The notes under the pieces: generated by a model
Databases searched by the model: none
Told to the model about the DNA's origin: nothing
Seen by the model: the letters and a program-made list of their open reading frames with translations, nothing else
Translations under genes and position numbers: made by a program
Shown: positions 1-20,288 of the stretch, piece by piece
Numbering within the stretch: position 1 is the stretch's first letter
Layout: each line of letters opens with the position of its first letter
NCBI GenBank assembly: GCA_963810955.1
Contig: CAWEPW010000043.1
Location: 37,034 to 101,033, forward strand
Reading direction: 5' to 3'
Length of the DNA stretch: 64,000 bases
Origin: an uncultured Acidobacteriaceae bacterium
Lineage (GTDB): Bacteria; Acidobacteriota; Terriglobia; Terriglobales; Acidobacteriaceae

Positions 1-1537
1 CGAGCACAGGAATCTCTTTTGGCGCAAGCGCTCCCACGCGCAGAGCGCGCTTGGTCAGCACCACCCAAAGCAATCCCAACCCGTAAACCGCGCCTGCAAT
101 CAAAAGTTGCAGAGCCAGTTCCACGTAATGGTGCGGGATAAACCAGCTTTGCATCAGGAGAAGCGCGAACACCATCGGTATGCTGATGAGTATTGGCAGC
201 ACGTAGGCCTCGCGCAAGTAGGTGCTTACGCGAATCCCAAGTTGTTTGCACAAGTGCCCCGGCATAAAAAAGATCATGCTGACCGCCAGCGGAATGGCCG
301 TGCCGTAGGCGTCGCCCTCTATGGCTCGCTCCACCGATGTATGAATGAACAGGCGCACCAGAACGATGCTCAGAACCAGGTTGGCAATGCCTTCGGCGAG
401 CGTGACGAAGGCCCAAGTCTTGTGCTTGCTGATTCCGAAGAGCACTCGTCCAGAAGCCGCCTGCGCCCACATCAGTGTCGCTGGGATGATCAGGATCACG
501 AGCACCGGGTAGCTGGTGGCGATATATTTCTTCCCGACCCACACTTCAATAATCGACTTGCCCAGCACCAGCAAGGTCGCGGTAATGGGGAAACAGGTGA
601 AGGCGCACAAGCGGTTCCCGGCCACGAAAACTTTCCGCAGGCGGTCCATTTTCCCGGTCGCTTCCGACTCGCTGGCCAGGGGCAGAAAATTCTGCGCCAG
701 CGCCATCACCACCTGTTGCGTGTAATTCACGATGCGGGAGCCGATGGTGAAATACGTGATGGCGGCCGCCGAAATCATGCTGCCAATCACGATGTTGTCG
801 GTCTTGAACTTCAGTTGGGTCGCGATCATGATGATCAGCGTGACTCCGCTGTAGTTCGCCATCAGGTGGAAGGTTTCGCGGTCCACATATTTCATCCCAA
901 ACGGAACGGGACGAATGCGGAAAGCGATAACTCCCCGGACCAATGAATTAATAATAGGAAGAGCCACCGTAATGGCCGCCACGGTGAGCAACCCCTTGCC
1001 GTGGGTAAGAGCAGTTACGATCAGAACGACGCGAACGGCATTGCCCGCGACGCTCGTCCAGTTGTTAACGTAAAACATCTGCAGCCCATCCAGAAAACCG
1101 CCCACGACGCCGAGGGGGAAGCCGAGCGCAATTGCAACTCCGACCATCCACAGCAACAAGCGAGCGGTTGAATGGAAGCCCGGCGGAATCTTGAATAGGT
1201 TGTCGACGTAAATTCCGAGCACGGCCGTCACCATCAGACTCAGAACGCCGATGCAGCTATAGCTGAAGAAGCTGGTATTGATCAGCTTGGCCAGGTCTTC
1301 AATGTCGTCAACCGCGGTGAACTTCGAGACATAGCGGACTATCGAGGAACGGATTCCGAGATCGAACAGACCGTAGTATCCCGTGATCGTAAAAATCAAA
1401 ACCCAGATGCCGGATGCGGTATCGCCCAGTTTGTGCAGTATGAAGGGGTAGAGCAGGAAACCGACAACGACGTCGACGCCCAGGGAGAACCAACTGGAGC
1501 CGACGTTCTTCATGATTTGACGTTTGTTGATGCTCAT
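1..1537 (-). CDS. MOP/Wzx-type polysaccharide flippase; ATG at 1537, C-terminus runs past the window start (partial)
   Basis: Reverse-complement translation from the ATG at 1537 gives MSINKRQIMKNVGSSWFSLGVDVVVGFLLYPFILHKLGDTASGIWVLIFTITG..., a hydrophobic multi-TM protein with a Wzx-like N-terminus. The stop-free plus-strand shadow ORFs 107-946 and 516-725 are consistent with a long minus-strand ORF. The ORF track omits edge-truncated ORFs, so it is not listed. Confidence 0.55.
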   Translation of the reverse strand, partial: MSINKRQIMKNVGSSWFSLGVDVVVGFLLYPFILHKLGDTASGIWVLIFTITGYYGLFDLGIRSSIVRYVSKFTAVDDIEDLAKLINTSFFSYSCIGVLSLMVTAVLGIYVDNLFKIPPGFHSTARLLLWMVGVAIALGFPLGVVGGFLDGLQMFYVNNWTSVAGNAVRVVLIVTALTHGKGLLTVAAITVALPIINSLVRGVIAFRIRPVPFGMKYVDRETFHLMANYSGVTLIIMIATQLKFKTDNIVIGSMISAAAITYFTIGSRIVNYTQQVVMALAQNFLPLASESEATGKMDRLRKVFVAGNRLCAFTCFPITATLLVLGKSIIEVWVGKKYIATSYPVLVILIIPATLMWAQAASGRVLFGISKHKTWAFVTLAEGIANLVLSIVLVRLFIHTSVERAIEGDAYGTAIPLAVSMIFFMPGHLCKQLGIRVSTYLREAYVLPILISIPMVFALLLMQSWFIPHHYVELALQLLIAGAVYGLGLLWVVLTKRALRVGALAPKEIPVL

Positions 1538-1540
1538 TGC

Positions 1541-1688: not shown

Positions 1689-2564
1689 TTAAAGTGGCTG
1701 ACCCGAAAGTGGCTGGGCCGTCCGAACCCACGCCGGCACAGTCTTGTTGTCCAATTCGCGGGTCTGTAGCGGGTAGCCGAGAAAATTCAAAAGTGGAGCC
1801 CAGGCGATTTCGATCTCCTGCACGCAGTGTTGGGGGAGGGTTTCCTTCCATCCCCCAGACTTCGCCGCCCGGACAAAGGGAATTTCTTTGCGCGTATTTT
1901 TGGTTCCGGTCCATTGGTCGGCTTGTTGTTTTTCGAGCTTGCGCATGCGGTCGGCCGAGCTTCGCTGCACCGCTGCTTCGAGACGTTCCGGGCTGGCTTG
2001 AATGCCGAGAAATTCGGCAATCTTGCCGGTTTCGCCAATCGAGTCCGAAAGCAAATCTTCGTAACGAACCAGATGAAACGCAGGATTGCCGTGACGGGCG
2101 GCGATCCAACTGGCGGCGTGCTCCCACCAGGAACCGTAACCTGCTGTCGTCCCCTTGATGAAGCGCTCGACGAACTGTTCGAGTGTGACGTCGGCCTCGA
2201 TGTAACGCTTTTTCAAGTCGAAGTGGTACTCGGAGACGGCAACGTCGCGCGGATCGCGCACCAGGTAGATAACTTTTCGAAAACGAACGTCAAAGGGCTC
2301 GTGGCTTTTCAAGATGCGGGGCCGCGGCAGACTCCTGAGGAACCGTTTCGAGGAAACGCCCGGAGCAGGCAGCAACCGGTTGATATTGGCGAAGCCCACG
2401 GTTTCATTCGGGTAGATCAGATTCGCCAGCAGAAAACGCACCCACGTATTGCCTGACTTCGGATACGACACAAGAAAGGTGTCGTCGGGGAAAACAGTGA
2501 ATTCATTCCCGGCCTGGTCGCGACCCAGGAGAACTTTCACGGCGTATTTGACGTGGCCAAGCAT
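1689..2564 (-). CDS. PAPS-dependent sulfotransferase, paralog A (likely start is the ATG at 2564; the track ORF extends to 2687 through the palindromic element)
   Basis: FPDDTFLVSYPKSGNTW (5'-PSB motif), RDPRDVAVSEY (3'-PB motif) and C-terminal FVRAAKSGGW. Colinear with the two downstream paralogs. Confidence 0.8.
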   Translation of the reverse strand: MLGHVKYAVKVLLGRDQAGNEFTVFPDDTFLVSYPKSGNTWVRFLLANLIYPNETVGFANINRLLPAPGVSSKRFLRSLPRPRILKSHEPFDVRFRKVIYLVRDPRDVAVSEYHFDLKKRYIEADVTLEQFVERFIKGTTAGYGSWWEHAASWIAARHGNPAFHLVRYEDLLSDSIGETGKIAEFLGIQASPERLEAAVQRSSADRMRKLEKQQADQWTGTKNTRKEIPFVRAAKSGGWKETLPQHCVQEIEIAWAPLLNFLGYPLQTRELDNKTVPAWVRTAQPLSGQPL

Positions 2565-2567
2565 TAT

Positions 2568-2656
2568 CAATTTGTAATTTGTGATTGGTAATTGGTAATT
2601 GGAACCCTTCGGTTTTGATCTCAAATTACCAATTACAAATTGCCAATTACAAATTT
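2568..2656. repeat. Palindromic element made of AATTACCAATTACAAATT-type units; two ~32-nt inverted arms around a ~22-nt loop. It fills the gap between sulfotransferases A and B
   Basis: caatttgtaatttgtgattggtaattggtaattgg...tctcaaattaccaattacaaattgccaattacaaattt. The arms are near-perfect reverse complements. Confidence 0.85.
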
Positions 2657-3519
2657 CTCCCGCTGCCGCTGAGAACTCCCAACGCATCGTTATCTCGCAC
2701 TTTCGCGGGAACCGTCGAACTCAACTCATATCCCAGGCGTTGCATCAGCGGTCCCCAAGCCGCTTCAATTCTCGCGGCCATGGGCGCGGGCAAATCGTTG
2801 CGCCATCCGCCCGAACCGGCCGCGCGTACAAACGATAGATCCTTGCGCGAGCCTTTCATCAGTTCATTTTTGTCTGGTTGCTTCTTTTCGAGTTTCCGCA
2901 TGCTATCGGCCGAACTTCGCTCCACAGCTTGAGCAATCAGCTCAGGGCTGGCCACGAGATGCAGAAACTCCACGACCTTGGTAAGTTCGCGGGCGGTATC
3001 AGCGACCAGATCTTCGTAGCGGAGCAGAAGGAACCGCGGACTTCCCTCGCTCGTGTAAAGCCAGGTGGCAACGTTCTGTCCCCATGAACCGTGGGGACAG
3101 GTTTCCCCGGCCATAAAGCGGGTGACAAATTTCTCGATCGGCGAGTCATCGTCGAGTTTTCTAAGCTTGCGATGATAGTGGTATTGCGAGACGACGACAT
3201 CGCGCGGGTCGCGAACGATATAAACTACGAGAGGATAGCGGGGATCGAAGCACTCATGGCTTTTGATGATGCGCGGCCGCGTCATGCGGTCGAAGTCCCT
3301 TTTCGCGGTGCCCTCGGGGTCGGGAATCAGGCGATTGATGTTTTCGAAAGTCGCCGGCTGTTCGGGAAATCTGAGGTTAGCCAGGAGAAACCGCGTCCAG
3401 GTATTGCCCGACTTGGGAAAAGAAACGAGAAAAATGTCATCCGGAAGAATGAGCAGGCTGCGCGAAGGCCGGTGCAGGCCCAATCCGCGTTGTATGCCAG
3501 CCATCAGATGCTTGATCAT
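2647..3519 (-). CDS. PAPS-dependent sulfotransferase, paralog B
   Basis: MIKHLMAGIQ...FPKSGNTWTRFLLANL...IVRDPRDVVVSQYH...FVRAAGSGGW. Sulfotransferase-domain motifs present; 290 aa. Confidence 0.85.
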   Translation of the reverse strand: MIKHLMAGIQRGLGLHRPSRSLLILPDDIFLVSFPKSGNTWTRFLLANLRFPEQPATFENINRLIPDPEGTAKRDFDRMTRPRIIKSHECFDPRYPLVVYIVRDPRDVVVSQYHYHRKLRKLDDDSPIEKFVTRFMAGETCPHGSWGQNVATWLYTSEGSPRFLLLRYEDLVADTARELTKVVEFLHLVASPELIAQAVERSSADSMRKLEKKQPDKNELMKGSRKDLSFVRAAGSGGWRNDLPAPMAARIEAAWGPLMQRLGYELSSTVPAKVRDNDALGVLSGSGRNL

Positions 3520-3540
3520 TCTTCAATCCCCAAAACCTAT

Positions 3541-3646
3541 TTGTAATTGGTAATTTGTAATTGAAAGTCCGCCCGTCCAACCTTCAAAATCGTCCTCCCA
3601 CATCACGATTTTCAAATTACCAATTACAAATTACCAATTACAAATG
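3541..3646. repeat. Second copy of the palindromic TTGTAATTGGTAATT element, between sulfotransferases B and C, with a ~45-nt loop
   Basis: cctatttgtaattggtaatttgtaattgaaag...ttttcaaattaccaattacaaattaccaattacaaatg. On the minus strand the hairpin is followed by tttt and then the gene B start. Confidence 0.85.
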
Positions 3647-3648
3647 TT

Positions 3649-4506
3649 CTACAAATCTTCCAGTCCCGAATGCACCCTCCTGGCCCCTACCAGGTTCGAC
3701 GTGGACAATTCGTAGCCCATCTCGCGCATCAGGCCGCCCCATGCCGATTCAATTTGGGCGAGGCTTGCCTCGGACAACTCCGCCTTCCAACCGCCCGATT
3801 TGGCGGCGCGGACGAACGGTTTATCTTTTCGCGTCTCGCGCGTCGAGGACCACAGGTGCGCCTGCTTTTTCTCCAGCTCGCGCATCCGATCGGCGGAGCT
3901 CTGCTCTATGGCAAAAGCCAGGCGTTCTGGCGTGGCTGAGATTCCCAGGAAGCTTGCGATTCTTTCCATCTCGTCCATGGCCTGCGACTGCAGCGACTCG
4001 TATTTCACCAACAGAAATCGAGGATCGCGGCGGCGGGTATAAAACCACGACGCGGCGTTTTCAAACCACGTTCCCGACTGATGGTTCACTTCGCCGCGAA
4101 CGAAGCGCCCGACAAATTCCGTCACCGGAAAATCGTCCGGAATAGCCCGCCGTTTGATGTCGAAGTGATATTCCGACAGCACAACGTCGCGCGGATCGCG
4201 AACGATGTAGATCACTTTCGGATAGCGAGGATCGAAATATTGGTGGCTCTTGAGCAGGCGCGGGCGCGCTGCGCGCTCCAGATCCTTCTTCGCCATCGCC
4301 TCTGGATCAGGGACTAAATCATTAATATTCGAAAAATCGGGATTCTTTTCGGGATAGACCAGATTGGCAATGAGAAACCGCGTCCAGGTGTTGCCGGACT
4401 TGGGATAAGAAACCAGAAAGACGTCATCGGGAAAAACGTGCAAATTGCGGCCGGGCGGATGCAGACCGAAAAAGTATTTCCCTCCCGCGATCAAACGCTT
4501 AATCAT
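3649..4506 (-). CDS. PAPS-dependent sulfotransferase, paralog C (start taken at MIKRLIAGG by analogy with paralog B; the track ORF starts at 4557)
   Basis: FPDDVFLVSYPKSGNTWTRFLIANL, YIVRDPRDVVLSEYH, FVRAAKSGGW. Third tandem paralog on the same strand. Confidence 0.8.
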   Translation of the reverse strand: MIKRLIAGGKYFFGLHPPGRNLHVFPDDVFLVSYPKSGNTWTRFLIANLVYPEKNPDFSNINDLVPDPEAMAKKDLERAARPRLLKSHQYFDPRYPKVIYIVRDPRDVVLSEYHFDIKRRAIPDDFPVTEFVGRFVRGEVNHQSGTWFENAASWFYTRRRDPRFLLVKYESLQSQAMDEMERIASFLGISATPERLAFAIEQSSADRMRELEKKQAHLWSSTRETRKDKPFVRAAKSGGWKAELSEASLAQIESAWGGLMREMGYELSTSNLVGARRVHSGLEDL

Positions 4507-4602: not shown

Positions 4603-5589
4603 TCAAGCCGTAGCTCCGTGGCGCATCCAACTCCAGAAAGACATGAGACGGCTAGTCGCTCCGGGCGCGATGCCCAAGCCAACGACCGCAAGGCTCAACA
4701 CCGCGCTATGCAAAAAACCGTTCGCTTCCGCAATCAACTCGCGCGCCTTGTCAAACTGGCGTTCTTCCAGCTTGCATTTGCCCTCTTCCAGCAGATAGCG
4801 GGCCCGAATCTCAGCGGCACGCTTTTCAACCACCGCGCGATCGGCGCCTTCGAGCGGCAAAGTTCGCAGGAACTTATCCAGAATACACCAGTAGGCTTCG
4901 GCCATTCTGGCCCGCGACACGCTGAGCGAACCGGGGCGGCCGATGAAGAGACGAGCCTGAACCGCGCGCCCATAGCTGATTTTCGCCCCGCTGTAGGCAG
5001 CCCGCACCCACATATCGTAATCGTCGCAGCGCGCCAGTTTTTCATCGAACAAGCCCGCGTCCATCAGACTCTTTTTTCGCGCTACCACGGTTGAAATCGG
5101 AATCTGGCAATCTTCCACGATCAAGGCGGCAAACGTAGCCTGACCATGGGACGGGCACTTCTCCATGAACGGCCTCTCGGTCGCCGGGTCGCCGACGAGA
5201 AGCGCGTTGGCATAGACCAGATCGAGCGCTGGATCGTCCGCGATCAGCTTCATCTGCGCCGCGAGGTGGTTCGGATACCAGCTGTCATCGCTGTCGAGAA
5301 AGGCTACGAACTCTCCGCGAGCCTGCCGAATGGCGTTGTTGCGCGCAGCGGCGGCGCGCTTGTTCTCCTGCTTGATGTAAACCAGCCGTTTCTCGCCGCT
5401 GATGTAAGGCTGCAAAACCTTCTCCAGTTCGGGCGTATCCGGCGATCCGTCGTTGACGACGATCGCCTCGAAATCCGCGTAGGTCTGCGCGAAAACGGAG
5501 TCGAGGCAAGCCGCGATCAAATCGGCGGTCTTATAGCTCGGGATGATCACGCTGACCCTGGGCGCCGGATTGGTTTCGGCTGCTGGCAT
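4603..5589 (-). CDS. Family 2 glycosyltransferase (GT-A fold)
   Basis: VSVIIPSYKTADLIAACLDSVFAQTYADFEAIVVNDGSPDT and a DSDD motif. 328 aa, intact. Confidence 0.8.
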   Translation of the reverse strand: MPAAETNPAPRVSVIIPSYKTADLIAACLDSVFAQTYADFEAIVVNDGSPDTPELEKVLQPYISGEKRLVYIKQENKRAAAARNNAIRQARGEFVAFLDSDDSWYPNHLAAQMKLIADDPALDLVYANALLVGDPATERPFMEKCPSHGQATFAALIVEDCQIPISTVVARKKSLMDAGLFDEKLARCDDYDMWVRAAYSGAKISYGRAVQARLFIGRPGSLSVSRARMAEAYWCILDKFLRTLPLEGADRAVVEKRAAEIRARYLLEEGKCKLEERQFDKARELIAEANGFLHSAVLSLAVVGLGIAPGATSRLMSFWSWMRHGATA

Positions 5590-5612
5590 TCTTTTAATCG
5601 CGTTAGAACTTG

Positions 5613-5712: not shown

Positions 5713-7077
5713 CTACGAACTGTGAAACACCAGTTCCTTTTCTCCGGCGATGATGTTATTCGCCGCTTCCACGCCCATCATCACCGAGTGATCCATATTT
5801 CCGATTTCATAGCGCCACGCGCCAAAACGTCCGCGAGAATAAATACCTTTTTCGAGCAACGCCGGTTGCAACACCTCGAGCGCGCGGTCGCGGCCGAGCG
5901 TCGGGATCGGATACGAGTAGCCGACCGTTCGGTGATAACGCGAGACAATGCGCCCACGGTCCGATTCCTCCAGCATATTAGTCCGGATCAGTTCGGTGGT
6001 TACCTGATCAAGAATTTTTTCCGGGTCGGGCGTTTCTCCTACCCGGAATGACATTTCGCACATCAGCGAACTGTAGTGCTCGATATCGCCGTTCGGCACG
6101 TTGTTCGGCGAGTAATGCGAAAAATAGGTGGCGCGATAGCACGGCATCTGCGGGTCGGTGAAGTAAATCCAGCAGCGTCCGGTCTCTATCTTCTTCTTAA
6201 TGCCAAGGCCAACCACCAGAAGATTGTTGTGTTCGAGGCCCTGGGCGGCATCGAGCAGCCGGTTGTCGGCCGGCTTGATCATCTTCGTGAGCAGATCGAG
6301 CGGCGCGGTCGAGATCAGCAGATCGTAATTGTCGCCGGTGCCGTCGGCGAACGAAACCCGGCGTTTCTCCAGATCGACCTCGGCCAGCTTTTTGCCGGTA
6401 ATTATCTTCTTCGGAAAGTAGGCGGCCATGCGCCGGTAGATCTCGCCGGTTCCGCCGTGCAGCGGGAACTTGAACTTGTTGTTCGGACCCCAGGCCACAT
6501 CGTCGCGCTCATAAAGAACGTTTTCGAGCAGCCGTTTGAAATCTATCGCCGCCACGCGCTCGGCGATCCAGGTCTTCGACATCTGTTCGAGCGGAGTGGT
6601 CCACACCTTGGAGTTATAGGGAAACATGAATTCTTCGGCGATGCCCTCGCCCATGGTGGCCAGAATCCAGTCGCGAAAGTTTCCCGCCTCGCGTCCGCCG
6701 CCGTTCGATGCGGCTTTGGCCGCGCCGATGAGGCAACTGACCTGAACCTCTTTAGGCAAGTAGCGCAGATTGCTCTGAAACGGGTATGGAACCCACGATT
6801 CGCCTCTTACGATCCAGCTCTCGCGAATGCGCTCGTGAACTTCTTTGCCAAGAGCCTTGTCGATCAGCCGGTCGAAATAGGGATAGTGCGAAAAGATGAC
6901 GTGGCCGCCCTCATCCCAGACAAATCCATTCTTATCTACATGGGAAGTGGCGTGCCCGCCGACATACTCGGATTTCTCATAAAGAACCCAGTTATCGTAG
7001 CCCAGTTCATGGAGACGGTAGGCCGCGCCCAGTCCGGTCGGTCCTGCTCCGATAATGACAATTTTCTTGCTCGCCAT
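5713..7077 (-). CDS. glf: UDP-galactopyranose mutase, eukaryotic-type (~450-500 aa class)
   Basis: IIGAGPTGLGAA Rossmann motif. GGHVIFSHYPYFD, WVPYPFQSNLRYLPKE, CYRATYFSHYSPNN and SRGRFGAWRYEIGNMDHS closely match the conserved blocks of fungal and kinetoplastid UGMs (recalled sequence, not a database search). Confidence 0.75.
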   Translation of the reverse strand: MASKKIVIIGAGPTGLGAAYRLHELGYDNWVLYEKSEYVGGHATSHVDKNGFVWDEGGHVIFSHYPYFDRLIDKALGKEVHERIRESWIVRGESWVPYPFQSNLRYLPKEVQVSCLIGAAKAASNGGGREAGNFRDWILATMGEGIAEEFMFPYNSKVWTTPLEQMSKTWIAERVAAIDFKRLLENVLYERDDVAWGPNNKFKFPLHGGTGEIYRRMAAYFPKKIITGKKLAEVDLEKRRVSFADGTGDNYDLLISTAPLDLLTKMIKPADNRLLDAAQGLEHNNLLVVGLGIKKKIETGRCWIYFTDPQMPCYRATYFSHYSPNNVPNGDIEHYSSLMCEMSFRVGETPDPEKILDQVTTELIRTNMLEESDRGRIVSRYHRTVGYSYPIPTLGRDRALEVLQPALLEKGIYSRGRFGAWRYEIGNMDHSVMMGVEAANNIIAGEKELVFHSS

Positions 7078-7196: not shown

Positions 7197-8114
7197 ATGC
7201 GGACCAGCATCTCCTAATCGGACATCGAATCGAACATCGGCATGACCGCTCTGAGTTTCCGAAGAAATCTTTGCAGGAGAACCAAATTGTAGCATAGGGT
7301 TTTTGCCCTTCCTGTGTGCCGAAAGTAACCGTGGATTAACGAAAATGCGCCGTCTGCCGCTGCATCTCAGCGCTTCCCGTCTTGCTGCGGCTTGGTGCTC
7401 CGCAAAGCACAGCCGCAGGCGGAAATCGTATCCCTTCAGCGGCTAGACAAACAACGAACGGAGGAAAAAGAGGAGGGAAAATAAAATCAGCCTTACTAGC
7501 GAAACCGGCATCTCTTAAGCGAACCGCTTATTTCGTGCGCCAACGGATTTCGGAGCCAACCTTGTCGGCGCAACCTTCGGCTCGCCGGTGCAAATAGTTA
7601 CTTATGATTACTTATTCCGAGGGCAGGTACTGCCGGCTGATCGGCCAACTGCTAGAATCACGTACTTAAGTGTTGCAGAATTTCATTGATTTTGGAGGCT
7701 TTTTCGTTGGGCCGATCAAGTCGAAGCGGTTCCACCATTAATTCCCAATCCGGGATGAATATCGCAACTTTTTTCACTTCGGTCGAGACTGTCCGCGACC
7801 GCAGGAACTAGTGAGTTGATCACACAATGATTTCATTATCTTACGATGAAAGATTCGTCGAATTTCGGAAGTCGAATTGCTCGCTAAATCACACGGAAGA
7901 CTTATTGACGTACGCCTGATTGACACAATGCCTGAAACATCTACTGCCTAGAGCTAGTTTACCCAATCGGACGTGACCAGTGCGTCCAGGGTGAGGAAGG
8001 AATTTTGGGATGAGGCCCAGCGATACCGATAACAAGCAGAAACACAAATTTGAAGTCGACATTGCCCTGAAATCGGAAGGGAATGCTGCCGCAAACACCG
8101 GGAGGAATAAGGAC

Positions 8115-9858
8115 TTGACCGCTTCAGGTAGCCATCTGATCGCCCCGCATGGGGGAGAACTGGTTCAGCTGCAAGTGCCGGCCGCGCGCGCCGCGGAGTT
8201 GAAGGCGCACTCGAAAGATTGGCCTTCGTGGGACCTGACCGCCCGGCAGCTTTGCGATCTGGAATTGTTGACCAGCGGCGGCTTTTCTCCGCTGCGCGGG
8301 TTTATGAATCGCGCCGATTACGAAGGCGTGTGCCACAACATGCGCCTGGCGAACGGCACACTTTGGCCGATGCCGATCACTCTCGACGTCAGTGAAGAAT
8401 TTGCCAAGAAACTGACCCCCGGTTCGAGCAAAATCGCGCTGCGCGATCCCGAAGGCGTGATGCTCGCCGTGCTCAACGTTGAAGACGTCTGGCAACCGGA
8501 CCGCAAGAGTGAAGCTCAATCCGTCTTTGGTTCCACCAGCGCCGCGCACCCGGGTGCGGACTACGCGATCAACAAGTCGCATCCGTGGTACGTGGGCGGA
8601 ACGATCGAAGAGTTGCAGGCTCCGTCGCACTACGATTTCCGCGCCCTGCGCCTGACTCCGGCCGACCTGCGTGCCGAGTTCCGCCGCCTGGGTTGGACCA
8701 CCGTCGTAGCCTTCCAGACGCGTAATCCCATGCATCGCGCCCACGTCGAGCTGACCATGCGCGCCGCCAAGCAAGTCGAGGCGAATCTGCTCATCCATCC
8801 TTCGGTCGGCATGACCAAGCCCGGCGACGTGGACTATTTCGTCCGCACCCGCTGCTACGAGCTGCTGCTGGCCAAGTATCCGCACGGCACAGTAAAGCTC
8901 TCGATGCTGCCGCTTGCCATGCGCATGGGCGGGCCGCGCGAAGCGCTGTGGCATGGCTTGATCCGCAAGAATCATGGCTGCACTCATTTCATCGTCGGCC
9001 GCGATCATGCCGGACCGGGCAAAGACACCGATGGCAGGAACTTCTACGGACCTTACGATGCCCAGGAACTATTCAAGAAACATCAGGAAGAAATGGGCGT
9101 CAAGATGGTTCCTTTCCAGATGATGGTTTATCTGCAGAATGAAGACCGTTATGTGCCTTCAGACGAAGTCCCACAGGGCGCGAAGGTCCTCGACATTTCA
9201 GGAACGGAATTGCGTCAACGCCTCAACGAGGGCCGTGATATTCCCGCTTGGTTTACCTATCCCGAAGTGGTGCAGGAATTGCGCCGCAGCTATCCGCCAC
9301 GCCACAAACAGGGCGTCACGATTTTCTTTACCGGTCTTTCGGGCTCGGGCAAGTCGACGATCGCCAACGCCCTGATCACGAAGTTCCTGGAGATGGGCGG
9401 ACGTCCCAGTCACTCTGCTCGACGGCGACCTGGTGCGCAAGAACCTGTCGTCGGAATTGGGCTTCTCGAAGGAGCATCGCGACATCAACATTCGCCGCAT
9501 CGGCTACGTCGCTTCCGAAATCACCAAGAACGGCGGCATCGCCATCTGCGCCCCCATCGCTCCTTACCAGGCGACGCGCAAGGCGGTGCGGCAGATGATT
9601 GAGCCTTTCGGCGGCTTCATCCTAGTGCACGCGGCTACGTCGATCGAAGTCTGCGAACAGCGCGATCGCAAGGGCCTCTACGCCAAGGCGCGAGCCGGCA
9701 TTGTCAAGGAATTCACCGGCATCTCCGATCCTTATGAGGCACCTGCCGATGCCGAAGTGGTCATCGATACTGCTAAGCTGACTCCCGAAGAAGCCGCCCA
9801 GACCATTATTTTGCACCTGGAGCGCGAGGGCTTTGTCGGGGCCAACGGCAACGGATAG
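8115..9858 (+). CDS. sat/cysC: Bifunctional sulfate adenylyltransferase (Sat-type ATP sulfurylase) with a C-terminal APS kinase domain (PAPS synthase). The reading frame is interrupted by a +1 indel near 9405-9410. The likely start is TTG at 8115, preceded by GGAGGA; the track ORF starts at 8010
   Basis: [24 protein letters not shown] and GRDHAGPG are ATP sulfurylase motifs. The C-terminal [22 protein letters not shown]-loop continues after the shift in frame 9433-9858 ([30 protein letters not shown]...). One extra nucleotide in cgtcccagtcact separates the two frames. Confidence 0.8.
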
Positions 9859-10144: not shown

Positions 10145-10915
10145 ATGGAATTCTTGCTGCTAAAAGTACTGATCGGCTTCTGCGTCGGAACGCTGATCGG
10201 CTTAACGGGTCTGGGCGGCGGCGTATTGCTTTTGCCCATGCTCATCTTTGGCCTGCACATCCCCGCCATCATCGCCGTCGGCAGCGACGCGATGTTCAAC
10301 TTCTTCACCAAGATTCCCGCCAGCATCATGCACATCTGGCGGGGCACGGTGCGGAGAAAAGTCGTGCTCGCCATGGCCATCGGCAGCATGCCCGGCTCCT
10401 ATCTCGGCGTAACTTTTCTCGTGCACCTGCGCCACGTTTACGGCAACCACGTCAACGATTTCATCAAATCCGCGGTAGGGTTATTGCTCGTCTTAATTCC
10501 CACCCTGCTGATGTTTCAGGGCCGGATCGAGGACCATCTAGCCGGCCGCACGCCGACCATGAAGTCATTCGCCTTCATGAGCGTAATCGGACTTACCGGC
10601 GGATTCCTGGTGGGCATCACCTCGGTCGGCTCGGGCAGCATCATCATGATGTTGCTTCTTTTGTTTTATTCCTTCCCTCCCAAGATCATGGTCGGCACCG
10701 ACATTGCCCATGCCGTGCTTCTCACCGGCGTGACCAGTCTGTTGCACTGGCGGGCAGGCAACGTTGACGGGCATCTGGTCGGAGCATTGCTCATCGGGTC
10801 GATTCCCGGCGGAATGCTTGGCTCGTATCTGACTACGCGTGTCCCGGTACTGTGGCTGCGGCGAATCCTGTGCACCGTCTTGCTGATCACCGGAGCGCGC
10901 ATGTTGTGGGTGTAA
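10145..10915 (+). CDS. TauE/SafE (DUF81) family anion permease; a candidate sulfate or sulfite transporter by context
   Basis: 256 aa polytopic membrane protein with two halves each carrying GxGGG-like motifs (LTGLGGGVLLLP and ITSVGSGSIIMM). It sits between sat-cysC and cysQ. Confidence 0.7.
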   Translation: MEFLLLKVLIGFCVGTLIGLTGLGGGVLLLPMLIFGLHIPAIIAVGSDAMFNFFTKIPASIMHIWRGTVRRKVVLAMAIGSMPGSYLGVTFLVHLRHVYGNHVNDFIKSAVGLLLVLIPTLLMFQGRIEDHLAGRTPTMKSFAFMSVIGLTGGFLVGITSVGSGSIIMMLLLLFYSFPPKIMVGTDIAHAVLLTGVTSLLHWRAGNVDGHLVGALLIGSIPGGMLGSYLTTRVPVLWLRRILCTVLLITGARMLWV

Positions 10916-11016: not shown

Positions 11017-11841
11017 TTGGAGAACATCTTAGTGACTTCATCCGCAGAAACTCTGGAACGTATTCATGCCGCACTGGAAGCGGCTCGGGTTGTGCTGAAG
11101 GGCTTTACCCCCGGAGCCATCGAGGCCAAATTTAAAGTTGGCGACGATCCGGTCACGGCCGCCGACCGCGCCGTCGACGACGTTCTGCGCAAGACGCTGC
11201 TTCGTTCCGGCGAGGGTTGGCTCTCGGAAGAAACCGTCGACGATTTCAGCCGTCTCGACAAACAACGTGTATGGGTCGTCGATCCGCTCGATGGCACGCG
11301 CGAGTTCGTGCAAGGCATTCCCGAATTCTGTGTTTCCATCGCCATGGTGGAGAATGGAATTCCCGTCGCCGGAGGCATCTGCAATCCGGCGACCGACGAA
11401 CTCATACTGGGCTCGCGCGAAACCGGCGTAACCTACAATGGGAAGCCCGCGCAACCGAGCCAGCGCAAGGATCTCCACGGCGCGCTCGTCCTGGCCAGCC
11501 GCAGCGAAGTGAAGCGAGGCGAGTGGAAGCAGTTCGAATCGGCCGAGTTCAACATTCGCCCCATGGGATCGGTCGCCTACAAGCTCGGACTGGTCGCCGC
11601 CGGCCGCGCCGATCTCACCTTCACCCTGGTTCCAAAAAATGAGTGGGACGTTGCCGCCGGCGCCGCGCTGGTCGAAAGCGCCGGAGGGTGGGTGCTGAAA
11701 CTCGACAATTCTCCCTTGCGCTGCAACCAGAAAAATCCGCTGATCTCCGGCCTCCTGGCCGGTAGCCCATTCCTGCGCGCTCCATTGCTCGCCATGCTCG
11801 ACCGCCACTCCCAGACCGTCGGAGCGGACAAGCAAGTCTGA
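11017..11841 (+). CDS. cysQ: 3'(2'),5'-bisphosphate nucleotidase CysQ (inositol monophosphatase family). Start may be the GTG at 11032, which has a GGAGA upstream
   Basis: WVVDPLDGTREF and WDVAAGAALV metal-binding motifs; 274 aa. Confidence 0.8.
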   Translation: MENILVTSSAETLERIHAALEAARVVLKGFTPGAIEAKFKVGDDPVTAADRAVDDVLRKTLLRSGEGWLSEETVDDFSRLDKQRVWVVDPLDGTREFVQGIPEFCVSIAMVENGIPVAGGICNPATDELILGSRETGVTYNGKPAQPSQRKDLHGALVLASRSEVKRGEWKQFESAEFNIRPMGSVAYKLGLVAAGRADLTFTLVPKNEWDVAAGAALVESAGGWVLKLDNSPLRCNQKNPLISGLLAGSPFLRAPLLAMLDRHSQTVGADKQV

Positions 11842-14173: not shown

Positions 14174-15363
14174 CTAGCCAGCCGGAGGACGCGTTCCCAG
14201 CTGATCAAGTTCTATCCGTGACGGAATGGCGCGCCCATGTCGCAGCGCCTGGTAGACCCACGCAAACAATGCTGAATTGATCATGCAAAAATAGTAAGGG
14301 AGCCGCAGAACTTTGGGCTTGAGGCTAGCCATAGCGCCCAGTACAGCGAGCCCATAGAAGAGCACTTGCCCGAGCAACAACCAGTCGTAAGGGAATTGTC
14401 CGCGCAAAGCGATATTCGCTCCAAGCGCGATGAGCATAAAGATGGGCACCAGCAGCCGCCCGGTTTTGTGAGAGAGCAAACAGAAGAGGACAAACGGCCG
14501 CGGCGGCCAGATCAGCCCTTTGATCTCCCGCAATTGTTCGATGTTGCCGGCCGTGATTCGCACGCGGCGGGAGAATCCCTCCATTTCATGAGCCTCTTCA
14601 TAGGCCACGGCTGCCGGTTCGTAGGCCACGCGATGTCCCTGTTCAACAATGCGCATCGGAATCGTGAAGTCGTCGTTGATGGTGTTGAGCGGCGGAAATG
14701 GATAAAGCGCGCGACGAATGGCATAAAGAGATCCGTGCGCGCCAGTAAATGCGCCGAGCTTGGCCTCTTGCACTTTCAGGAAAGTTTCATATTTCCAGTA
14801 GAGATCTTCTTGCGACCCAAGGTGGGCCTGATCTTTCTTCAGGAGCCGGTAAACTCCGCTGGCCGCGCCCACCCGCGCATCGTTGAAACTCTGCACCAGC
14901 ACGCGGAGAGAGTCGGCGGCCAACATGCTGGAAGCGTCGGAGAACGCTACGATGTCTCCGCGCAATTCGGGCACGGCATCGTTAAGAACCGCCATCTTTC
15001 CGCGATTCTTCTCATAATTGAGCAGGCGAATTCGTCCGTCGCTTCCGGTGTCGCTTCGTTTTCGCTTTTATAAAATGACCGCACAATTTCAGCCGTGGCA
15101 TCCTTCGACCCATCCGATGCGACCACGATTTCCAGCTTGTCGGCCGGGTAGTCAAGCGCAAGACTGTTGCGGATTTTGTCCGCGATAACAGCGGCTTCGT
15201 TGTAGGCGGCCACCAGCAGCGAAACGGACGGCTCAATCGGCTCCCGGCGCGGCGCGGCGCGAACCACACCCTGCAGCAGCCACAGCAGAATCGGATAACC
15301 GGCGTAGACGTAGACCGTAACCCCCGCCGAAATCCAGAACAGAAGCCTGGTCGTCATTAGCAA
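14174..15363 (-). CDS. Membrane-embedded family 2 glycosyltransferase (synthase-like, with TM segments at both ends). Split into two frames by an indel near 15040-15075
   Basis: N-terminal part (14947-15363): TM helix then LLVAAYNEAAVIADKI...LEIVVASDGSKDATAEIV. C-terminal part (14174-14995): NYEKNRGKMAVLNDAV..DIVAFSDASS..QEDLYWKYE..TGAHGSLYAIRR followed by several TM helices. Confidence 0.65.
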
Positions 15364-15370
15364 TACTGCC

Positions 15371-16056
15371 TTAGATGGCCGTAGACCGGATGCAATGCAG
15401 TTGCCCGAGAATCTCGTGCGAATCGATGCGGAATCCGGCGCGCTTCAAATAGTCTTCCGCCTGCGCCTGCGTGAAGAAATAGACCGGGCAGCCGTCCGCC
15501 TTGAGGCGCACCTTGCGAATCGATGCGCGCAGAGTCGCGGCGCGCGGCCATGCCGACAAGAAACGTCTTCTTCGTAATTCCGCGGATCACCTGCAATCTC
15601 GGCAACGGGTCGGCCACGTAATCCCAGAATCCGATCGCAATCACCTGATCGAACTTCTGGTCCGTCTTCCAGTCGAGCACATCGCTGAGCACGAACTTGC
15701 AGCGATCCGCGACACCCTTCTTTTTCCACCAGTTGCTGACTCAACCTCAGCATCTCCGGAGCAAAGTCCAGGCCGGTAACCTGCGCGCCGCGTTTGGCCA
15801 GCGTCGCGACAAAGCGTCCCGAACCGCAGCCGACGTCGCAGATCGTCATGCCGTTCAAGTCAGGGGACGGGCCTGATTCGCGCATGACCCACTCGTAGCG
15901 CTGGTAAATGTCTTTTCTCAGCCATTTATCCAGGCCGCGGCCGATCGGGCCCTTGTTGCCTGTATAGATCGCGTCGAAATCGTTGGCGATGTCGTTCCAG
16001 TATTTCGCTATCTGCTCAGATTCGTCAGTTTTTGTTTTCGTGGCTGTTCCATTCAT
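15371..16056 (-). CDS. Class I SAM-dependent methyltransferase, spread across three frames (two frame changes near 15712 and 15545)
   Basis: ICDVGCGSGRFVATLAKRGAQVTGLDFAPEMLRLSQQLVEKEG in frame 1. ..FVLSDVLDWKTDQKFDQVIAIGFWDYVADPLPRLQVIRGITKKTFL in frame 2. CPVYFFTQAQAEDYLKRAGFRIDSHEILGQ in frame 3. Confidence 0.65.
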
Positions 16057-16918
16057 AGAAATCGAAATCCTTGGCCGTATCGGCGAGTCCGCTTTCGCGG
16101 AAGCTGGTGTAATTTCCTGCCTGCAGCACGCTCTGGAAACGATCGAGAGTGCTCGACAGGTTGGTGTAGTGACGTAGACGGGAGCTCAGACGGCCCGGCA
16201 ACCGCGGCTGTTCGGGGTCGATCTCCCAGGGATGAATGTAAATCACGATGGGCAAACCTTCTTTTTGCACGCTTTTCAATCCCAATCGTGTGTAGATTCG
16301 CGGCAGCAGCCGAAGATAGCCGCCTCCGCCGACTGGCATATTGTGTCCAGCCAGGCGAAACGTGGTGATGGGAAACTCCGTCATGGGTCCCGAAGGCGTT
16401 TGAAAACGAAACGGAGCCCTCGGCGCGCCGGGCATCCCATAGCGGTCATGATGGATGGGAAAAATACTCGAGTCGTAGGTGAATCCAAGCTCGGTCAGGA
16501 TATCCAGCGCCCAAACCGAACGGTCGATCACAGAATAGGTAGGTGCACGATAACCGGTGACCGGTTGGCCGCCGATTTGCTCAATAATGTCCTTGGCGCG
16601 CCTAGTATCTTCCTTGAAATCAGCAGGTTCCAGCTTATATATCAACCGGTGCCAATAGGAATGGCAGGCCAACTCATGTCCACCTGCCGCAATCTCACGT
16701 ACCAATGCCGGAAACCGCTCCGCCACCCATCCCAGAACGAAAAACGTTCCCTGAATGTTGAGCCTAGCCATTAACTCCAATAGCCGCCGCGTGTTCGGTT
16801 CCACGCGGCTCGTATAGCTATCCCAGCGAGCGCGATCAACCACATCGGAAAAGGCTTCGGCGTGGAAATAGTCTTCCACATCCACCGACACCACATTTCT
16901 GAGTATTTTCTCTGACAT
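16025..16918 (-). CDS. Polysaccharide deacetylase family protein of the PEP-CTERM/exosortase-locus subtype
   Basis: NVVSVDVEDYFHAEAF N-terminal signature, ...GTFFVLGWVAERFP..ACHSYWH. 297 aa, intact. Confidence 0.7.
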   Translation of the reverse strand: MSEKILRNVVSVDVEDYFHAEAFSDVVDRARWDSYTSRVEPNTRRLLELMARLNIQGTFFVLGWVAERFPALVREIAAGGHELACHSYWHRLIYKLEPADFKEDTRRAKDIIEQIGGQPVTGYRAPTYSVIDRSVWALDILTELGFTYDSSIFPIHHDRYGMPGAPRAPFRFQTPSGPMTEFPITTFRLAGHNMPVGGGGYLRLLPRIYTRLGLKSVQKEGLPIVIYIHPWEIDPEQPRLPGRLSSRLRHYTNLSSTLDRFQSVLQAGNYTSFRESGLADTAKDFDFYEWNSHENKN

Positions 16919-17060
16919 TCCCCGATGGATCGTCCGCGAAAGGATTTCTCTCTTAGTATCGCCCAGCCAGCGGACATTTGGAACGTAATTTTGCCGCTCG
17001 CCGCAAGAGCACAGTTACAAAAGTAAGCCCATCGAAATGTGCTTAAAGCAAGGCTTTTCC

Positions 17061-17089
17061 GCAATTCGCCTTCCTTCGTGGTCCTTAGT
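17061..17089. repeat. Three tandem copies of a 9-10-nt unit (TCCTTMGTGG) in the 5' region of beta-helix paralog 2
   Basis: tccttcgtgg tccttagtgg ccttagtgg. Confidence 0.75.
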
Positions 17090-17209
17090 GGCCTTAGTGG
17101 TGATGCTTTCGCGGACCGCTCCACAACCGCATGTTACTATCTGCTATCGCAGCTGCTGAGAATATCCTTCATTCCACCCACGGGACGTGCCGTTAGGAGA
17201 ACCAACACC

Positions 17210-19069
17210 GTGTCCTTTTTTTGCCGTCTGAGCTTTCCGCCGAAGTTAACTTTTCGTTCGCTCAATAGTTTCGGAGTTGTGTTCGCGATTGCCTTCGCAG
17301 CACTTCTAATTCCACAGCCAGCCGCAGCCGCGAATACGCCTCCCATCGGGGAGAACGCCTATTGCGGCAAGGGAGACATACCGAAGTTCGGCGAAAAGGA
17401 CGGCCCGGCGCAACTTCCGACGTCGTGCTATTACACGGCAATGGATGGCACTCCCTCGCCCGGCAAACAGATCCGCGTCGGTGCCAGCTCCGATTTGAAT
17501 TCCGAGCTCGAGTCGGCAAAGTGCGGAGACACGCTGTTGCTCGCCGCCGGCGCGTCATTCCACATCAAGGAATTGCCGGCGAAGAAATGCGACGACCAGC
17601 ACTACATCACCATACGCACCGATACGCCAGATTCCAAACTGCCGCCGGAAGGAACCCGCATTTCGCCGGCCTGGGCCGGAGTCGCCAGCTTGCCGGGCAG
17701 GCCAACCTATTCGCAGCCAGCAGGTGGCCCGGCCAAGCTCCTGGCGACCCTGCTCGTCAAAGTACCCTCGGGAGCGACCATGGGAGACCACTATCGCTTC
17801 ATCGGCATCGAGTGGTCCGCCGACCCCGGCGCGCGTATTGCCCGCCTGGTGTCGACCGAGGGCGCCGACCACCTGATTTTCGACCGCAACTGGTTCCATC
17901 CTCCGAATGACGAGGAAATGAACAAGGGGGTCGGAATGATCCACGGCACCCGGTTCATCGCCGTGATCAATTCCTATTTTAGTGGCTTCCATTGCATAGC
18001 CCGCACGGGCACGTGCACCGATTCCTCCGCCGTCGGCGGCGGAAATGGGGACGTTCCTGTCAGCACTCTCAAGATTTATAACAACTTCCTCGAGTCGTCA
18101 GGACAGAGCATTTTATTCGGCGGCGCCAGGTCCGAGGTCAATCCCACCGATATCGAAATCCGCCGCAATCATCTGTTCAAGCCCATGATCTGGAAACAAG
18201 GCGAGCCAGGCTTCGCTCCAGACAGCTCTGGTAATCCTCCGATCGTCAAGAATCATTTCGAGTTGAAGAGCGGAATCCGCGTGCTCTTCGAAGCCAACCT
18301 GCTCGAAAATTGCTGGGGCGGTTTCTCGCAAACCGGCTTTTCCATCCTGCTGACTCCCATCAATCAAAGCGGCATGTGCCCGAAGTGCGCGGTTACGGAT
18401 ATCACCATCCGCTACAACCGTATCCGAAACGTTTCGGGTGTGATGGAGGTGGCGAATCCCTTCGCGCAACAACGCGCAGTCGCCACTGACGGAGGCCGCT
18501 ACAGCATTCACGATCTGGTGGTTGACTCGGTCCATGATCAGGACTGGAAAGGCCGCGGCGAGTTTGCGGTCGTCAGTACCAACGCTGAATTGCTGCACGA
18601 CGTTGCTTTCAATCATGTGACCGCATTTGTGGCGGGCACGCTTTTTAATATTGGCAACCACACTGCCGACAAGATTCCCAATTTCAGTGTCACCAATAGC
18701 GTGTTCAGGCTTGGTGGCAGGCAGCCGGATTTAGCCTCAGTCGGCGGTGGCCAGGCTAACTGCGCCGATCAAGCCCAGCGCGCCGGCGTGGAGGCGGTGC
18801 TCAAAGCCTGCTTCACTAACTACAAATTCGAAAACAATTTGTTCATCAATACTCACGGCCCCATTCCCAAAGACAACATCTCAGTCGGATCGGCCGAAGC
18901 CGCCGGCATTCGCGATCTCAAAGATACGGTCAGCAAAGATCCACGACTCTGCCACGCCAAAGAAGCGGGGTGTGCGAAGGCCTCTCCCGGCGCAGGCGCA
19001 GCCTCCGATGGTCGCGACATGGGCGCCGACGTCGACGCCGTAGAAGCAGCCCTCGCCGGCGTCGAGTAA
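17210..19069 (+). CDS. Secreted right-handed parallel beta-helix protein, paralog 2 (intact). Start uncertain: GTG at 17210 gives a signal-peptide-like N-terminus; the track ORF starts at 17039
   Basis: VSFFCRLSFPPKLTFRSLNSFGVVFAIAFAALLIPQPAAAA signal-like region. Repetitive beta-helix-like blocks (NNFLESSGQSILFGGA, IEIRRNHLFKP, WGGFSQTGF, VTDITIRYNRI). Confidence 0.6.
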   Translation: MSFFCRLSFPPKLTFRSLNSFGVVFAIAFAALLIPQPAAAANTPPIGENAYCGKGDIPKFGEKDGPAQLPTSCYYTAMDGTPSPGKQIRVGASSDLNSELESAKCGDTLLLAAGASFHIKELPAKKCDDQHYITIRTDTPDSKLPPEGTRISPAWAGVASLPGRPTYSQPAGGPAKLLATLLVKVPSGATMGDHYRFIGIEWSADPGARIARLVSTEGADHLIFDRNWFHPPNDEEMNKGVGMIHGTRFIAVINSYFSGFHCIARTGTCTDSSAVGGGNGDVPVSTLKIYNNFLESSGQSILFGGARSEVNPTDIEIRRNHLFKPMIWKQGEPGFAPDSSGNPPIVKNHFELKSGIRVLFEANLLENCWGGFSQTGFSILLTPINQSGMCPKCAVTDITIRYNRIRNVSGVMEVANPFAQQRAVATDGGRYSIHDLVVDSVHDQDWKGRGEFAVVSTNAELLHDVAFNHVTAFVAGTLFNIGNHTADKIPNFSVTNSVFRLGGRQPDLASVGGGQANCADQAQRAGVEAVLKACFTNYKFENNLFINTHGPIPKDNISVGSAEAAGIRDLKDTVSKDPRLCHAKEAGCAKASPGAGAASDGRDMGADVDAVEAALAGVE

Positions 19070-19099
19070 TTGCCCGTGGTGGAATAATGCCCGTGTGGG

Positions 19100-19140
19100 G
19101 GCGGGGCTCTGCCCCGCCAAGACGGGGCGAAGCCCCCGTC
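19100..19140. terminator. Two adjacent GC-rich hairpins (ggcgggg..ccccgcc and gacgggg..ccccgtc) just after the paralog 2 stop; candidate terminator
   Basis: Read directly. They overlap the first ~45 nt of track ORF 19095-20288, which argues for a later start of that gene. Confidence 0.35.
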
Positions 19141-19241
19141 ACCACGCAATCCCAGGCCAAGACGATGCAGTAACTTCAGTAACCCTGTATTCACAGGGCT
19201 TTCAAACGGCTCCGATCATCCTGCATGTTAAGATTTTTCAG

Positions 19242-20288
19242 GTGTCCAGCCCCATCTCCAGCGATCGCAAATACTCGCCAGTCTTCGTGATGGGCTGCCA
19301 CCGTTCGGGAACCAACCTGCTCTACGACATGCTGCTCTCCGCTGGCGGTTTTGCCATCTACCGTGGCATTCTGCCGGTCTATGAAACTCTGATTCCTTGC
19401 TTCGGCTCGCTGCAGAGTCGCGCGCATCGCGAAAAGCTCGTCGAGACCTGGTTCCTCAGCAAAGGCTTCCGGCGCACCGGTCTCGCTGCTGAGCACTTGT
19501 CGGCGCGAATCGTCAACGAATGCCGCACCGGCGGCGACTTCATTCGCATTGTCATGGATTCCGTAGCTGAGAGCCAACACGCGCAGCGCTGGGCCGCATA
19601 CGATCCCGACAACGTGATACACGTTGAGCAAATCAAGCGCGAGATACCCAACGCTTTGTTTCTCCACATCATCCGCGACGGACGCGACATAGCTCTCTCG
19701 CTGAAAAAAATGGGCGGCTTCGCTCCCCTGCCCTGGGACCGCACTCAGACCGAGAGCCTGGTGGCGACAGCGCTTTATTGGCAGTGGATGGTGCAGTGCG
19801 GCCGCTCGGGCGGCAGCAAGTTCCCCTCCGACTATATCGAGGTCCGCTACGAAGACCTGGTCTCCAACCCGCGCCAGACGCTCGGCAGGGTGGGCGCTTT
19901 CATCGATCACGATCTGGAATATGACCGCATTCAAAACGCCGGCCTCGGCCGTGTGTCGGACACGAACTCTTCATTTCGAGAAGAAAGCGCCCAGCACGAG
20001 ATCAACCCGCTGGGGCGCTGGCGAGAGCGCCTCTCGCATACTGAGATCGCGGCTATCGAAGCCAATGTCGGGGACTGCCTGCAGGAAAATGGCTATGAGC
20101 TTTCGCTTCCTGCTGAAGAACGCCGCCTCGGCTTGCGCCTGTCGTCGATGCGTGCCATCTATCCTGCCTATCTCAACGGCAAGTCATGGCTCAAGGCACG
20201 CACGCCGCTCGGCCGTTTTGTCAGGACATCGGTTCTCAAACTCGAAGAGGAAGAACCCTTGCAACCAGCCGAGCCGGTTCTAAAGTAA
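19242..20288 (+). CDS. Sulfotransferase of the Stf0 / Sulfotransfer_3-like family, the fourth sulfotransferase in the locus. Start likely the GTG at 19242
   Basis: YSPVFVMGCHRSGTNLLYDML (PAPS 5'-phosphate-binding loop) and LFLHIIRDGRDIALS (3'-PB-like). Confidence 0.65.
   Translation: MSSPISSDRKYSPVFVMGCHRSGTNLLYDMLLSAGGFAIYRGILPVYETLIPCFGSLQSRAHREKLVETWFLSKGFRRTGLAAEHLSARIVNECRTGGDFIRIVMDSVAESQHAQRWAAYDPDNVIHVEQIKREIPNALFLHIIRDGRDIALSLKKMGGFAPLPWDRTQTESLVATALYWQWMVQCGRSGGSKFPSDYIEVRYEDLVSNPRQTLGRVGAFIDHDLEYDRIQNAGLGRVSDTNSSFREESAQHEINPLGRWRERLSHTEIAAIEANVGDCLQENGYELSLPAEERRLGLRLSSMRAIYPAYLNGKSWLKARTPLGRFVRTSVLKLEEEEPLQPAEPVLK

Follow-up and report, generated by a model that had tools for sequence, protein, structure and literature searches.

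Sulfated polysaccharides of bacteria are stated to be known essentially only from cyanobacteria (PMC8205485; PMC13390465). The synechan xss cluster of Synechocystis PCC 6803 encodes sulfotransferases together with glycosyltransferases and a Wzx, and sulfation has been proposed to take place on the cytoplasmic, lipid-linked repeat unit (PMC8205485). The present analysis concerns a 64,000-nt stretch of DNA (the window) from an uncultured Acidobacteriaceae bacterium (contig CAWEPW010000043.1), in which three tandem genes, designated A, B and C, encode predicted sulfotransferases dependent on 3′-phosphoadenosine 5′-phosphosulfate (PAPS). We give slightly better than an even chance to the reading that A, B and C each sulfate distinct positions of a lipid-linked oligosaccharide ahead of its transfer across the membrane by Wzx, and that they are old paralogs each kept for its own job. 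No paper linking Acidobacteria to sulfotransferases or sulfated polymers was found in a literature search.

Like the synechan cluster, the locus has several sulfotransferases embedded with glycosyltransferases and a Wzx flippase. It differs in that Wzy, PCP and regulators of the XssQ/R/S type were not seen, and in the addition of a dedicated module of PAPS synthase, TauE and CysQ and of a UDP-galactopyranose mutase (UGM) of eukaryote type, in a host of the phylum Acidobacteriota. The sulfotransferases XssA and XssE, whose best Pfam family is PF13469, showed ~21-22% identity to B over partial alignments, and a tblastn search of a plasmid collection that included pSYSM gave no pSYSM match at E <= 1e-5; A, B and C are not orthologous to XssA/XssE.

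The glycopeptide sulfotransferases StaL, Teg12 and Teg14 resemble A, B and C in being bacterial members of PF00685 encoded within a biosynthetic cluster; their structures have been solved, and the Teg enzymes are several paralogs that differ in regiospecificity. They act on a glycopeptide aglycone in actinomycete non-ribosomal peptide synthetase (NRPS) clusters, whereas the context here is that of UGM, a GT2 glycosyltransferase and Wzx without an NRPS. With the eukaryotic cytosolic sulfotransferases (SULT1A1/1A3 and SULT1E1) the three proteins share the fold, the Lys of the 5′-phosphosulfate-binding (5′-PSB) loop, the His of a KxH motif, the Arg and Ser of the 3′-phosphate-binding (3′-PB) motif and a C-terminal R..GGW(K/R). 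They are, however, only 23-30% identical to these enzymes, have a shorter N-terminus before the PSB loop and carry R(A/S)A in place of RKG; they are bacterial and operonic with glycan-assembly genes, and the acceptor presumed for them is a glycan, not a phenol or steroid. The rhizobial and mycobacterial enzymes NodH, NoeE, LpsS and Stf0 carry out PAPS-dependent sulfation of glycoconjugates, sometimes with genes of PAPS synthesis such as nodPQ, and belong to other sulfotransferase subfamilies. On plasmids of Sinorhizobium and Bradyrhizobium, weak matches (~29% identity) to unnamed sulfotransferases were obtained.

Three head-to-tail sulfotransferase genes

The following genes were assigned.

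1689..2564, minus strand: sulfotransferase A, 291 aa, SULT-like, PF00685 (Pfam E 9.5e-44)
2647..3519, minus strand: sulfotransferase B, 290 aa, SULT-like, PF00685 (Pfam E 4e-38)
3649..4506, minus strand: sulfotransferase C, 285 aa, SULT-like, PF00685 (Pfam E 7.7e-40)

A preliminary description of this DNA had reported three head-to-tail PAPS-type sulfotransferase genes on the minus strand, and this was confirmed, the span 1689-4506 being exact. Translation starts were set by homologs and public gene calls and not by the longest open reading frame (ORF); the raw minus-strand ORFs run from 1689 to 2687, 2647 to 3519 and 3649 to 4557. Upstream of these starts, the ORFs of A and C extend through intergenic hairpins, and the extensions are non-coding. 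All three proteins are present identically in NCBI/ENA, on one contig of 138,581 nt. Each matches PF00685 Sulfotransfer_1 from profile position 1 to position 243 or 254 of 255, with 132-150 bits against a cut-off of 22, and none was placed in a named family by an NCBIfam search.

The 5′-PSB motif (PKSGNTW) and the 3′-PB motif (RDPRDVxxS) that had been described for all three could be read directly from the alignment: the former is YPKSGNTW in A and C and FPKSGNTW in B, the latter RDPRDVAVS in A, RDPRDVVVS in B and RDPRDVVLS in C, and the catalytic KSH is likewise present in each. Pairwise protein identity was 50.2% for A-B, 51.6% for A-C and 53.0% for B-C, and was unevenly distributed. Between the pairs it reached 84% in the 5′-PSB segment and 71-77% from KSH to the 3′-PB motif, and fell to 37-50% in the loop regions 51-80 and 112-145 and to 16-48% in residues 1-25. 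Divergence had been placed in the middle region and in the N-terminal ~40 residues. The first of these sites holds, as the middle and loop regions; the second shrinks to a stretch of ~25 residues, because the remainder of the apparent N-terminus is upstream ORF extension through an intergenic hairpin.

Active-site residues and fold

Residues were compared in 43 A-like, 62 B-like and 18 C-like sequences (n=123) aligned with segments of SULT1A3 and mouse estrogen sulfotransferase. The residues that correspond to K48, W53, K106, H108, R130, S138, Y193 and R257 of SULT1A3 were invariant in all 123 orthologs, and the KSH of A, B and C aligned to the KSH/KTH of the SULTs. In the C-terminal segment RKGxxGDWK, the Arg and a GGW(K/R) are retained, while K258 is replaced by A or S and G259 by A in all three groups, i.e. 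RKG has become R(A/S)A. Checked for two faults that would count against their annotation, lack of relationship and loss of the catalytic Lys or Ser, A, B and C proved to be related, with Lys, His and Ser intact in 123/123 sequences.

By sequence, the nearest PDB entries to B were SULT1A3 and mouse and human estrogen sulfotransferase (E ~1e-22, 23-30% identity); next came Teg14, Teg12 and StaL, the glycopeptide sulfotransferases of bacteria (E 1e-12 to 1e-15). An AlphaFold2 model of B had a mean pLDDT (predicted local distance difference test) of 74, with low confidence in the cap loop (216-236) and the C-terminal tail. When this model was searched with Foldseek, the top 50 matches were all of the SULT family (probability 1.0, template-modelling (TM) score 0.5-0.6); most were cytosolic SULTs, with SULT1E1/1A1 at the top (TM ~0.6), and Teg12, retinol dehydratase and LGS1 were also among them. 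A, B and C are predicted to be PAPS-dependent sulfotransferases of the cytosolic-SULT type, and their sequences give no sign of a loss of activity.

Age of the paralogs and selection

A profile search returned >7900 homologs, those with a named source being metagenome-assembled genomes (MAGs) of Terriglobales. The best 120 of these matches all sorted into A-like, B-like or C-like proteins; within groups, identity was 83-96% to A, 79-100% to B and 81-97% to C, and across groups it was ~50%. A neighbour-joining tree of 83 sequences from genome loci (200 bootstraps) separated clades for A (8 loci, bootstrap 100), a wider B (15 loci, 98) and C (6 loci, 100). The branching order of A, B and C received bootstraps of only 14-24.

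The ratio of nonsynonymous to synonymous substitution rates (dN/dS) was measured against one close relative, locus L081 (JGI metagenome; 89-94% nucleotide identity in genes). A gave 0.058, B 0.164 and C 0.042 (dS 0.30-0.40), values comparable to those of the neighbouring GT2 gene (0.079) and UGM gene (0.027). A, B and C are each under purifying selection. To judge from the sequences compared, the duplication that gave rise to them is old and predates the divergence of several Terriglobales lineages.

A recent tandem duplication yielding a dosage array was rejected, as the paralogs are 50-53% identical to each other and 79-100% identical to orthologs elsewhere, and form separate clades. Recent duplication or gene conversion was likewise rejected, the longest DNA repeats between the copies being only 64-75% identical, and low dN/dS together with intact motifs ruled out a reading of the three as pseudogenes. 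Given the orthogroups, the clade bootstraps and the low dN/dS, the three genes are neither recent, nor dosage-redundant, nor decaying. The view that they are not simple dosage copies, put forward in the preliminary description, is supported by the ~50% identity, the three orthogroups with bootstraps of 100, 98 and 100, and the purifying selection.

Group-specific residues in the acceptor loops

An alignment column was taken as group-specific when it was >=90% conserved within each group and differed between groups. Among the 123 sequences, 38-39 such columns were found for the A, B and C groups. They included 10 of the 29 columns that match SULT loop 3, which caps the acceptor site, and further columns that align with SULT1A3 residues 139, 142, 144 and 148. 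In the numbering of B, group-specific residues include positions 56, 67, 112-121 and 216-235. Enrichment in the three SULT acceptor loops gave a Fisher p of 0.04 with strict limits and 0.006 with broad ones, the loop boundaries being assumed from the SULT literature. This distribution is suggestive of a divergence of A, B and C in acceptor or position specificity.

Operon organization and PAPS supply

The sulfotransferase genes are part of an operon on the minus strand with the order UGM, GT2, C, B, A, Wzx. An adjoining module for the synthesis and turnover of PAPS (Sat/CysC, TauE, CysQ) is transcribed in the opposite direction.

5713..7077, minus strand: UGM of eukaryote type, the first gene of the operon (PDB 4dsg E 1.1e-111, 3uka E 6e-106, full length)
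4603..5589, minus strand: GT2 glycosyltransferase, immediately upstream of C (PF00535 E 6e-30; syntenic in relatives)
1..1537, minus strand: 5′ part of a Wzx-type oligosaccharide flippase, exiting at the window start (frame open from ATG at 1537)
8010..9858, plus strand: ATP sulfurylase/adenosine 5′-phosphosulfate (APS) kinase fusion, i.e. PAPS synthase (PF14306, PF01747, PF01583)
10145..10915, plus strand: TauE/SafE-family permease (PF01925 E 1e-44; synteny)
11017..11841, plus strand: CysQ-like 3′(2′),5′-bisphosphate nucleotidase for removal of 3′-phosphoadenosine 5′-phosphate (PAP) (PF00459 E 2e-49; synteny)
19095..20288, plus strand: fourth sulfotransferase, of the different family PF13469 Sulfotransfer_3 (Pfam E 1.4e-25; GCHRSGTN and IIRDGRDIALS in the translation)

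The best PDB match of the GT2 protein was the GT2 domain of K4 chondroitin synthase (E 1e-26). The UGM is of the long eukaryotic type, unlike the short classical bacterial Glf; the structures 4dsg and 3uka are of eukaryotic enzymes (from a trypanosomatid and Aspergillus). Orthologs of the Wzx in loci L015 and L001 have 523-525 aa and match PF01943/PF13440. The PAPS synthase is interrupted by a 1-nt insertion near 9404, and its L081 ortholog is intact with 615 aa. In relatives, the TauE/SafE permease always lies between the PAPS synthase (CysC) and CysQ, and its position suggests a role in the transport of sulfate or a sulfur compound for the sulfation module. The fourth sulfotransferase, ~15 kb from A, B and C and with PSB and 3′-PB motifs that can be recognised, brings the total in the cluster to four, and no useful relative of it was returned by a PDB sequence search. 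Genes for a polyketide synthase (PKS), an NRPS or the biosynthesis of terpenes or lipids were not seen in the cluster.

Conservation of the layout in relatives

The layout [UGM]-[GT2]-sulfotransferase (1-3 copies)-Wzx was found at ~30 Terriglobia loci, usually with Sat/CysC-TauE-CysQ nearby, and all of these are in MAGs from bog, palsa, peat and soil. In ~20 related loci a Wzx gene lies 3′ of the last sulfotransferase gene. The content of the sulfotransferase cassette varied as follows.

C-B-A: window, L081, L001, L003, L004, L006, L015, L025
B-A only: L002, L005
A only: L007
B only: L023, L062, L024
two or three more divergent copies: L009, L014, L018, L036 and others

C was found only in the company of GT2. 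Since loci with A alone, B alone or B-A exist, no paralog strictly requires the others. More distant homologs in other phyla also often adjoin GT2 genes, and beyond Wzx in L001 and L015 the genes are unrelated. On this comparison of loci, the sulfotransferases behave as a modular cassette within a conserved glycan-export operon.

Proposed role and alternative explanations

In the proposed mechanism, a repeat-unit oligosaccharide, probably containing galactofuranose, would be built on undecaprenyl pyrophosphate at the inner membrane face, and each sulfotransferase would move sulfate from PAPS onto a different hydroxyl or sugar of the lipid-linked unit. The conserved His would serve as base, with the PSB-loop Lys and the 3′-PB Ser and Arg binding PAPS, and CysQ would clear the inhibitory product PAP. 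Once sulfated, the unit would be turned outward by Wzx and polymerised to give a surface or extracellular polysaccharide, whose pattern of sulfation would be set by how many sulfotransferases the cassette holds (1-3 in relatives).

To our knowledge, PAPS is confined to the cytoplasm. As A, B and C in addition have no signal peptide or membrane span, sulfation would be expected at the inner face, on the undecaprenyl pyrophosphate-linked oligosaccharide. A glycan acceptor is likely because of the operon context (UGM, GT2, Wzx and the PAPS module), on which the preliminary description had not drawn. Family membership, intact catalytic residues, old paralogy, purifying selection and the layout of the operon with its conservation were observed directly; PAPS-dependent activity, the glycan acceptor, differing regiospecificity and sulfation before flipping are what we infer from them.

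Several observations weigh against sulfation of a lipid-linked glycan. The closest solved relatives act on small molecules (phenols, steroids, glycopeptides) and not on polysaccharides, and a cap loop typical of small-molecule SULTs is kept, in what is the least confident part of the B model. The enrichment of group-specific residues in the acceptor loops is modest under strict limits, with assumed boundaries. Among the ORFs scanned at 1-24.5 kb there is no priming transferase, Wzy, PCP or OPX, all of which may be encoded elsewhere in the genome. UGM is absent from some sulfotransferase-Wzx loci (L010, L013, L016, L017, L022), so the acceptor need not be galactofuranose. In this assembly the PAPS synthase carries a frameshift, probably an assembly error, as splits also occur in housekeeping genes, metH and mutL among them. 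Finally, every acidobacterial locus found is in a MAG, with no cultured carrier.

The first two of these points also favour a different substrate, in that A, B and C might sulfate a small molecule or lipid, such as a glycolipid, a hopanoid- or steroid-like lipid or a secondary metabolite, with the PAPS module serving that chemistry, on the model of bacterial SULT-type enzymes whose substrates are glycopeptides. Small-molecule SULTs, Teg12, Teg14 and StaL give the best matches in sequence and fold, the cap-loop region is retained at similar length, and A, B and C are not close to XssA/XssE, the only genetically studied sulfotransferases of bacterial exopolysaccharide. The genes are, however, embedded between UGM/GT2 and Wzx, with sulfotransferase-Wzx adjacency in ~20 loci; the cluster showed no PKS, NRPS, terpene or lipid-biosynthesis genes; and the more distant homologs in other phyla often have a GT2 neighbour as well. 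It is the conserved link to Wzx and GT2 that ranks this explanation below the glycan reading, and we regard it as unlikely.

Two further explanations concern how the three enzymes would work. Functional redundancy, with the same acceptor and position and retention for dosage or robustness, would agree with the colinear genes and their identical catalytic motifs, and deletion of xssE, one of two synechan sulfotransferase genes, gave little phenotype (PMC8205485). It is set against 50-53% identity between the copies, separate orthologs retained across lineages under strong purifying selection, group-specific fixed residues in the acceptor loops, and DNA repeats between the copies that, at 64-75% identity, give no sign of gene conversion; we allow it only a slim chance. 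An obligate hetero-oligomer, or a strictly ordered relay in which the product of one enzyme is the substrate of the next, is suggested by the C-B-A order, which is fixed in 8/8 loci with all three genes, and by the dimeric state of cytosolic SULTs. Such an arrangement is very doubtful given that the same slot holds A alone in one locus, B alone in three and B-A in two. Division of labour on a lipid-linked oligosaccharide, each old paralog having its own position, is the reading retained here.

Other features of the window

A further group of genes lies between the PAPS module and the fourth sulfotransferase gene, and the intergenic regions of the operon contain repeats.

14174..16918, minus strand: GT2-like glycosyltransferase fragment, S-adenosylmethionine (SAM) methyltransferase and DUF3473 polysaccharide deacetylase (Pfam; the first two apparently frameshifted)
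17039..19069, plus strand: secreted right-handed beta-helix protein, ~620 aa (AlphaFold2 pLDDT 71, Foldseek)
2565..2646, minus strand: B-A spacer, palindrome of heptamer arrays (AATTGGT / CAAATTA), RNA fold -27.2 kcal/mol, z -4.5
3520..3648, minus strand: C-B spacer, 25-nt perfect inverted repeat of heptamer arrays, 100% complementary, RNA fold -43.7 kcal/mol, z -8.0

The beta-helix protein matched no Pfam or NCBIfam family, and a PDB sequence search gave nothing useful. With Foldseek, its model matched the GH136 lacto-N-biosidase LnbX (E 2.5e-8) and the PL6 alginate lyases and chondroitinase B (1e-4), at TM 0.3-0.5. All of its 2861 homologs are annotated as hypothetical, and those with a named source are from Terriglobales. 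The protein recurs beside sulfotransferase loci in many relatives, and a frameshifted paralog, split at 12167/12921, lies at 12167-13976 on the plus strand. Judged from the modelled fold, it may represent an undescribed glycan-cleaving or glycan-modifying family that acts on the product of the locus.

Inverted pairs of heptamer arrays (AATTGGT/CAAATTA, TCAGTCG/AACGACT) occur at 2569-2655, 3539-3645, 5615-5697 and 53347-53463, and also at 1533-1582, 7119-7179 and 10958-10994; the hairpins that they form in spacers have folding energies of -27 to -56 kcal/mol (z -3.3 to -8.0). Nearby there are also short tandem arrays with units of 14, 15 and 8 nt. The B-A palindrome is absent from the L081 spacer; similar palindromes are found in L001 and L003 and none in L015, L004, L006 and L025. 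The C-B inverted repeat is present in L081 and L001 with different copy number. These palindromes look like a mobile or expandable element of the repetitive extragenic palindromic (REP) or miniature inverted-repeat transposable element (MITE) type. No family at gathering score was obtained in an Rfam scan of the whole window, and in a consensus scan of 1-8200 promoter and terminator counts were no higher than in shuffled sequence.

The genes scanned from 21.2 kb to ~51 kb are housekeeping genes. Besides the PAPS synthase and the beta-helix paralog, split frames were seen for the methyltransferase (15445), the GT2 fragment (14174), mutL (27481/28650), metH (35251/36614/37981) and DyP (30614/31313). 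These frameshifts are probably sequencing or assembly errors rather than pseudogenes; A, B and C are intact despite the many single-base frameshifts in the assembly. At 30614-32689 on the plus strand, a DyP-type peroxidase gene adjoins, and is apparently frameshift-fused with, a Linocin_M18 encapsulin shell gene. This locus is a peroxidase-encapsulin nanocompartment and is unrelated to the sulfotransferases.

Significance

The enzymes and the logic of the cluster are of known kinds; less expected are their host and how complete the module is. The result amounts to an annotation and prediction with good support and does not describe a new mechanism. The locus unites PAPS synthesis, PAP removal, three to four sulfotransferases, a gene for galactofuranose supply and a flippase in Terriglobales that are abundant in peat and soil. 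It is possible, if somewhat short of an even chance, that uncultured Terriglobales of peat and soil make a cell-surface or extracellular polysaccharide with up to four sulfate esters per repeat unit, installed by SULT-type enzymes on the lipid-linked unit in the cytoplasm before export by Wzx, and that the cassette of one to three genes acts as a ‘sulfation code’ swappable between lineages; such a pathway would be a direct source of ester-sulfate in soil from microbes. If the glycan reading is true, A, B and C would provide a natural panel of three related, diverged glycan sulfotransferases for the engineering of sulfated polysaccharides. The locus would also allow a possible microbial origin of some of the organic ester-sulfate in soil to be approached genetically, and the bacterial range of sulfated polysaccharides would widen, beyond the cyanobacteria, into a major soil phylum.

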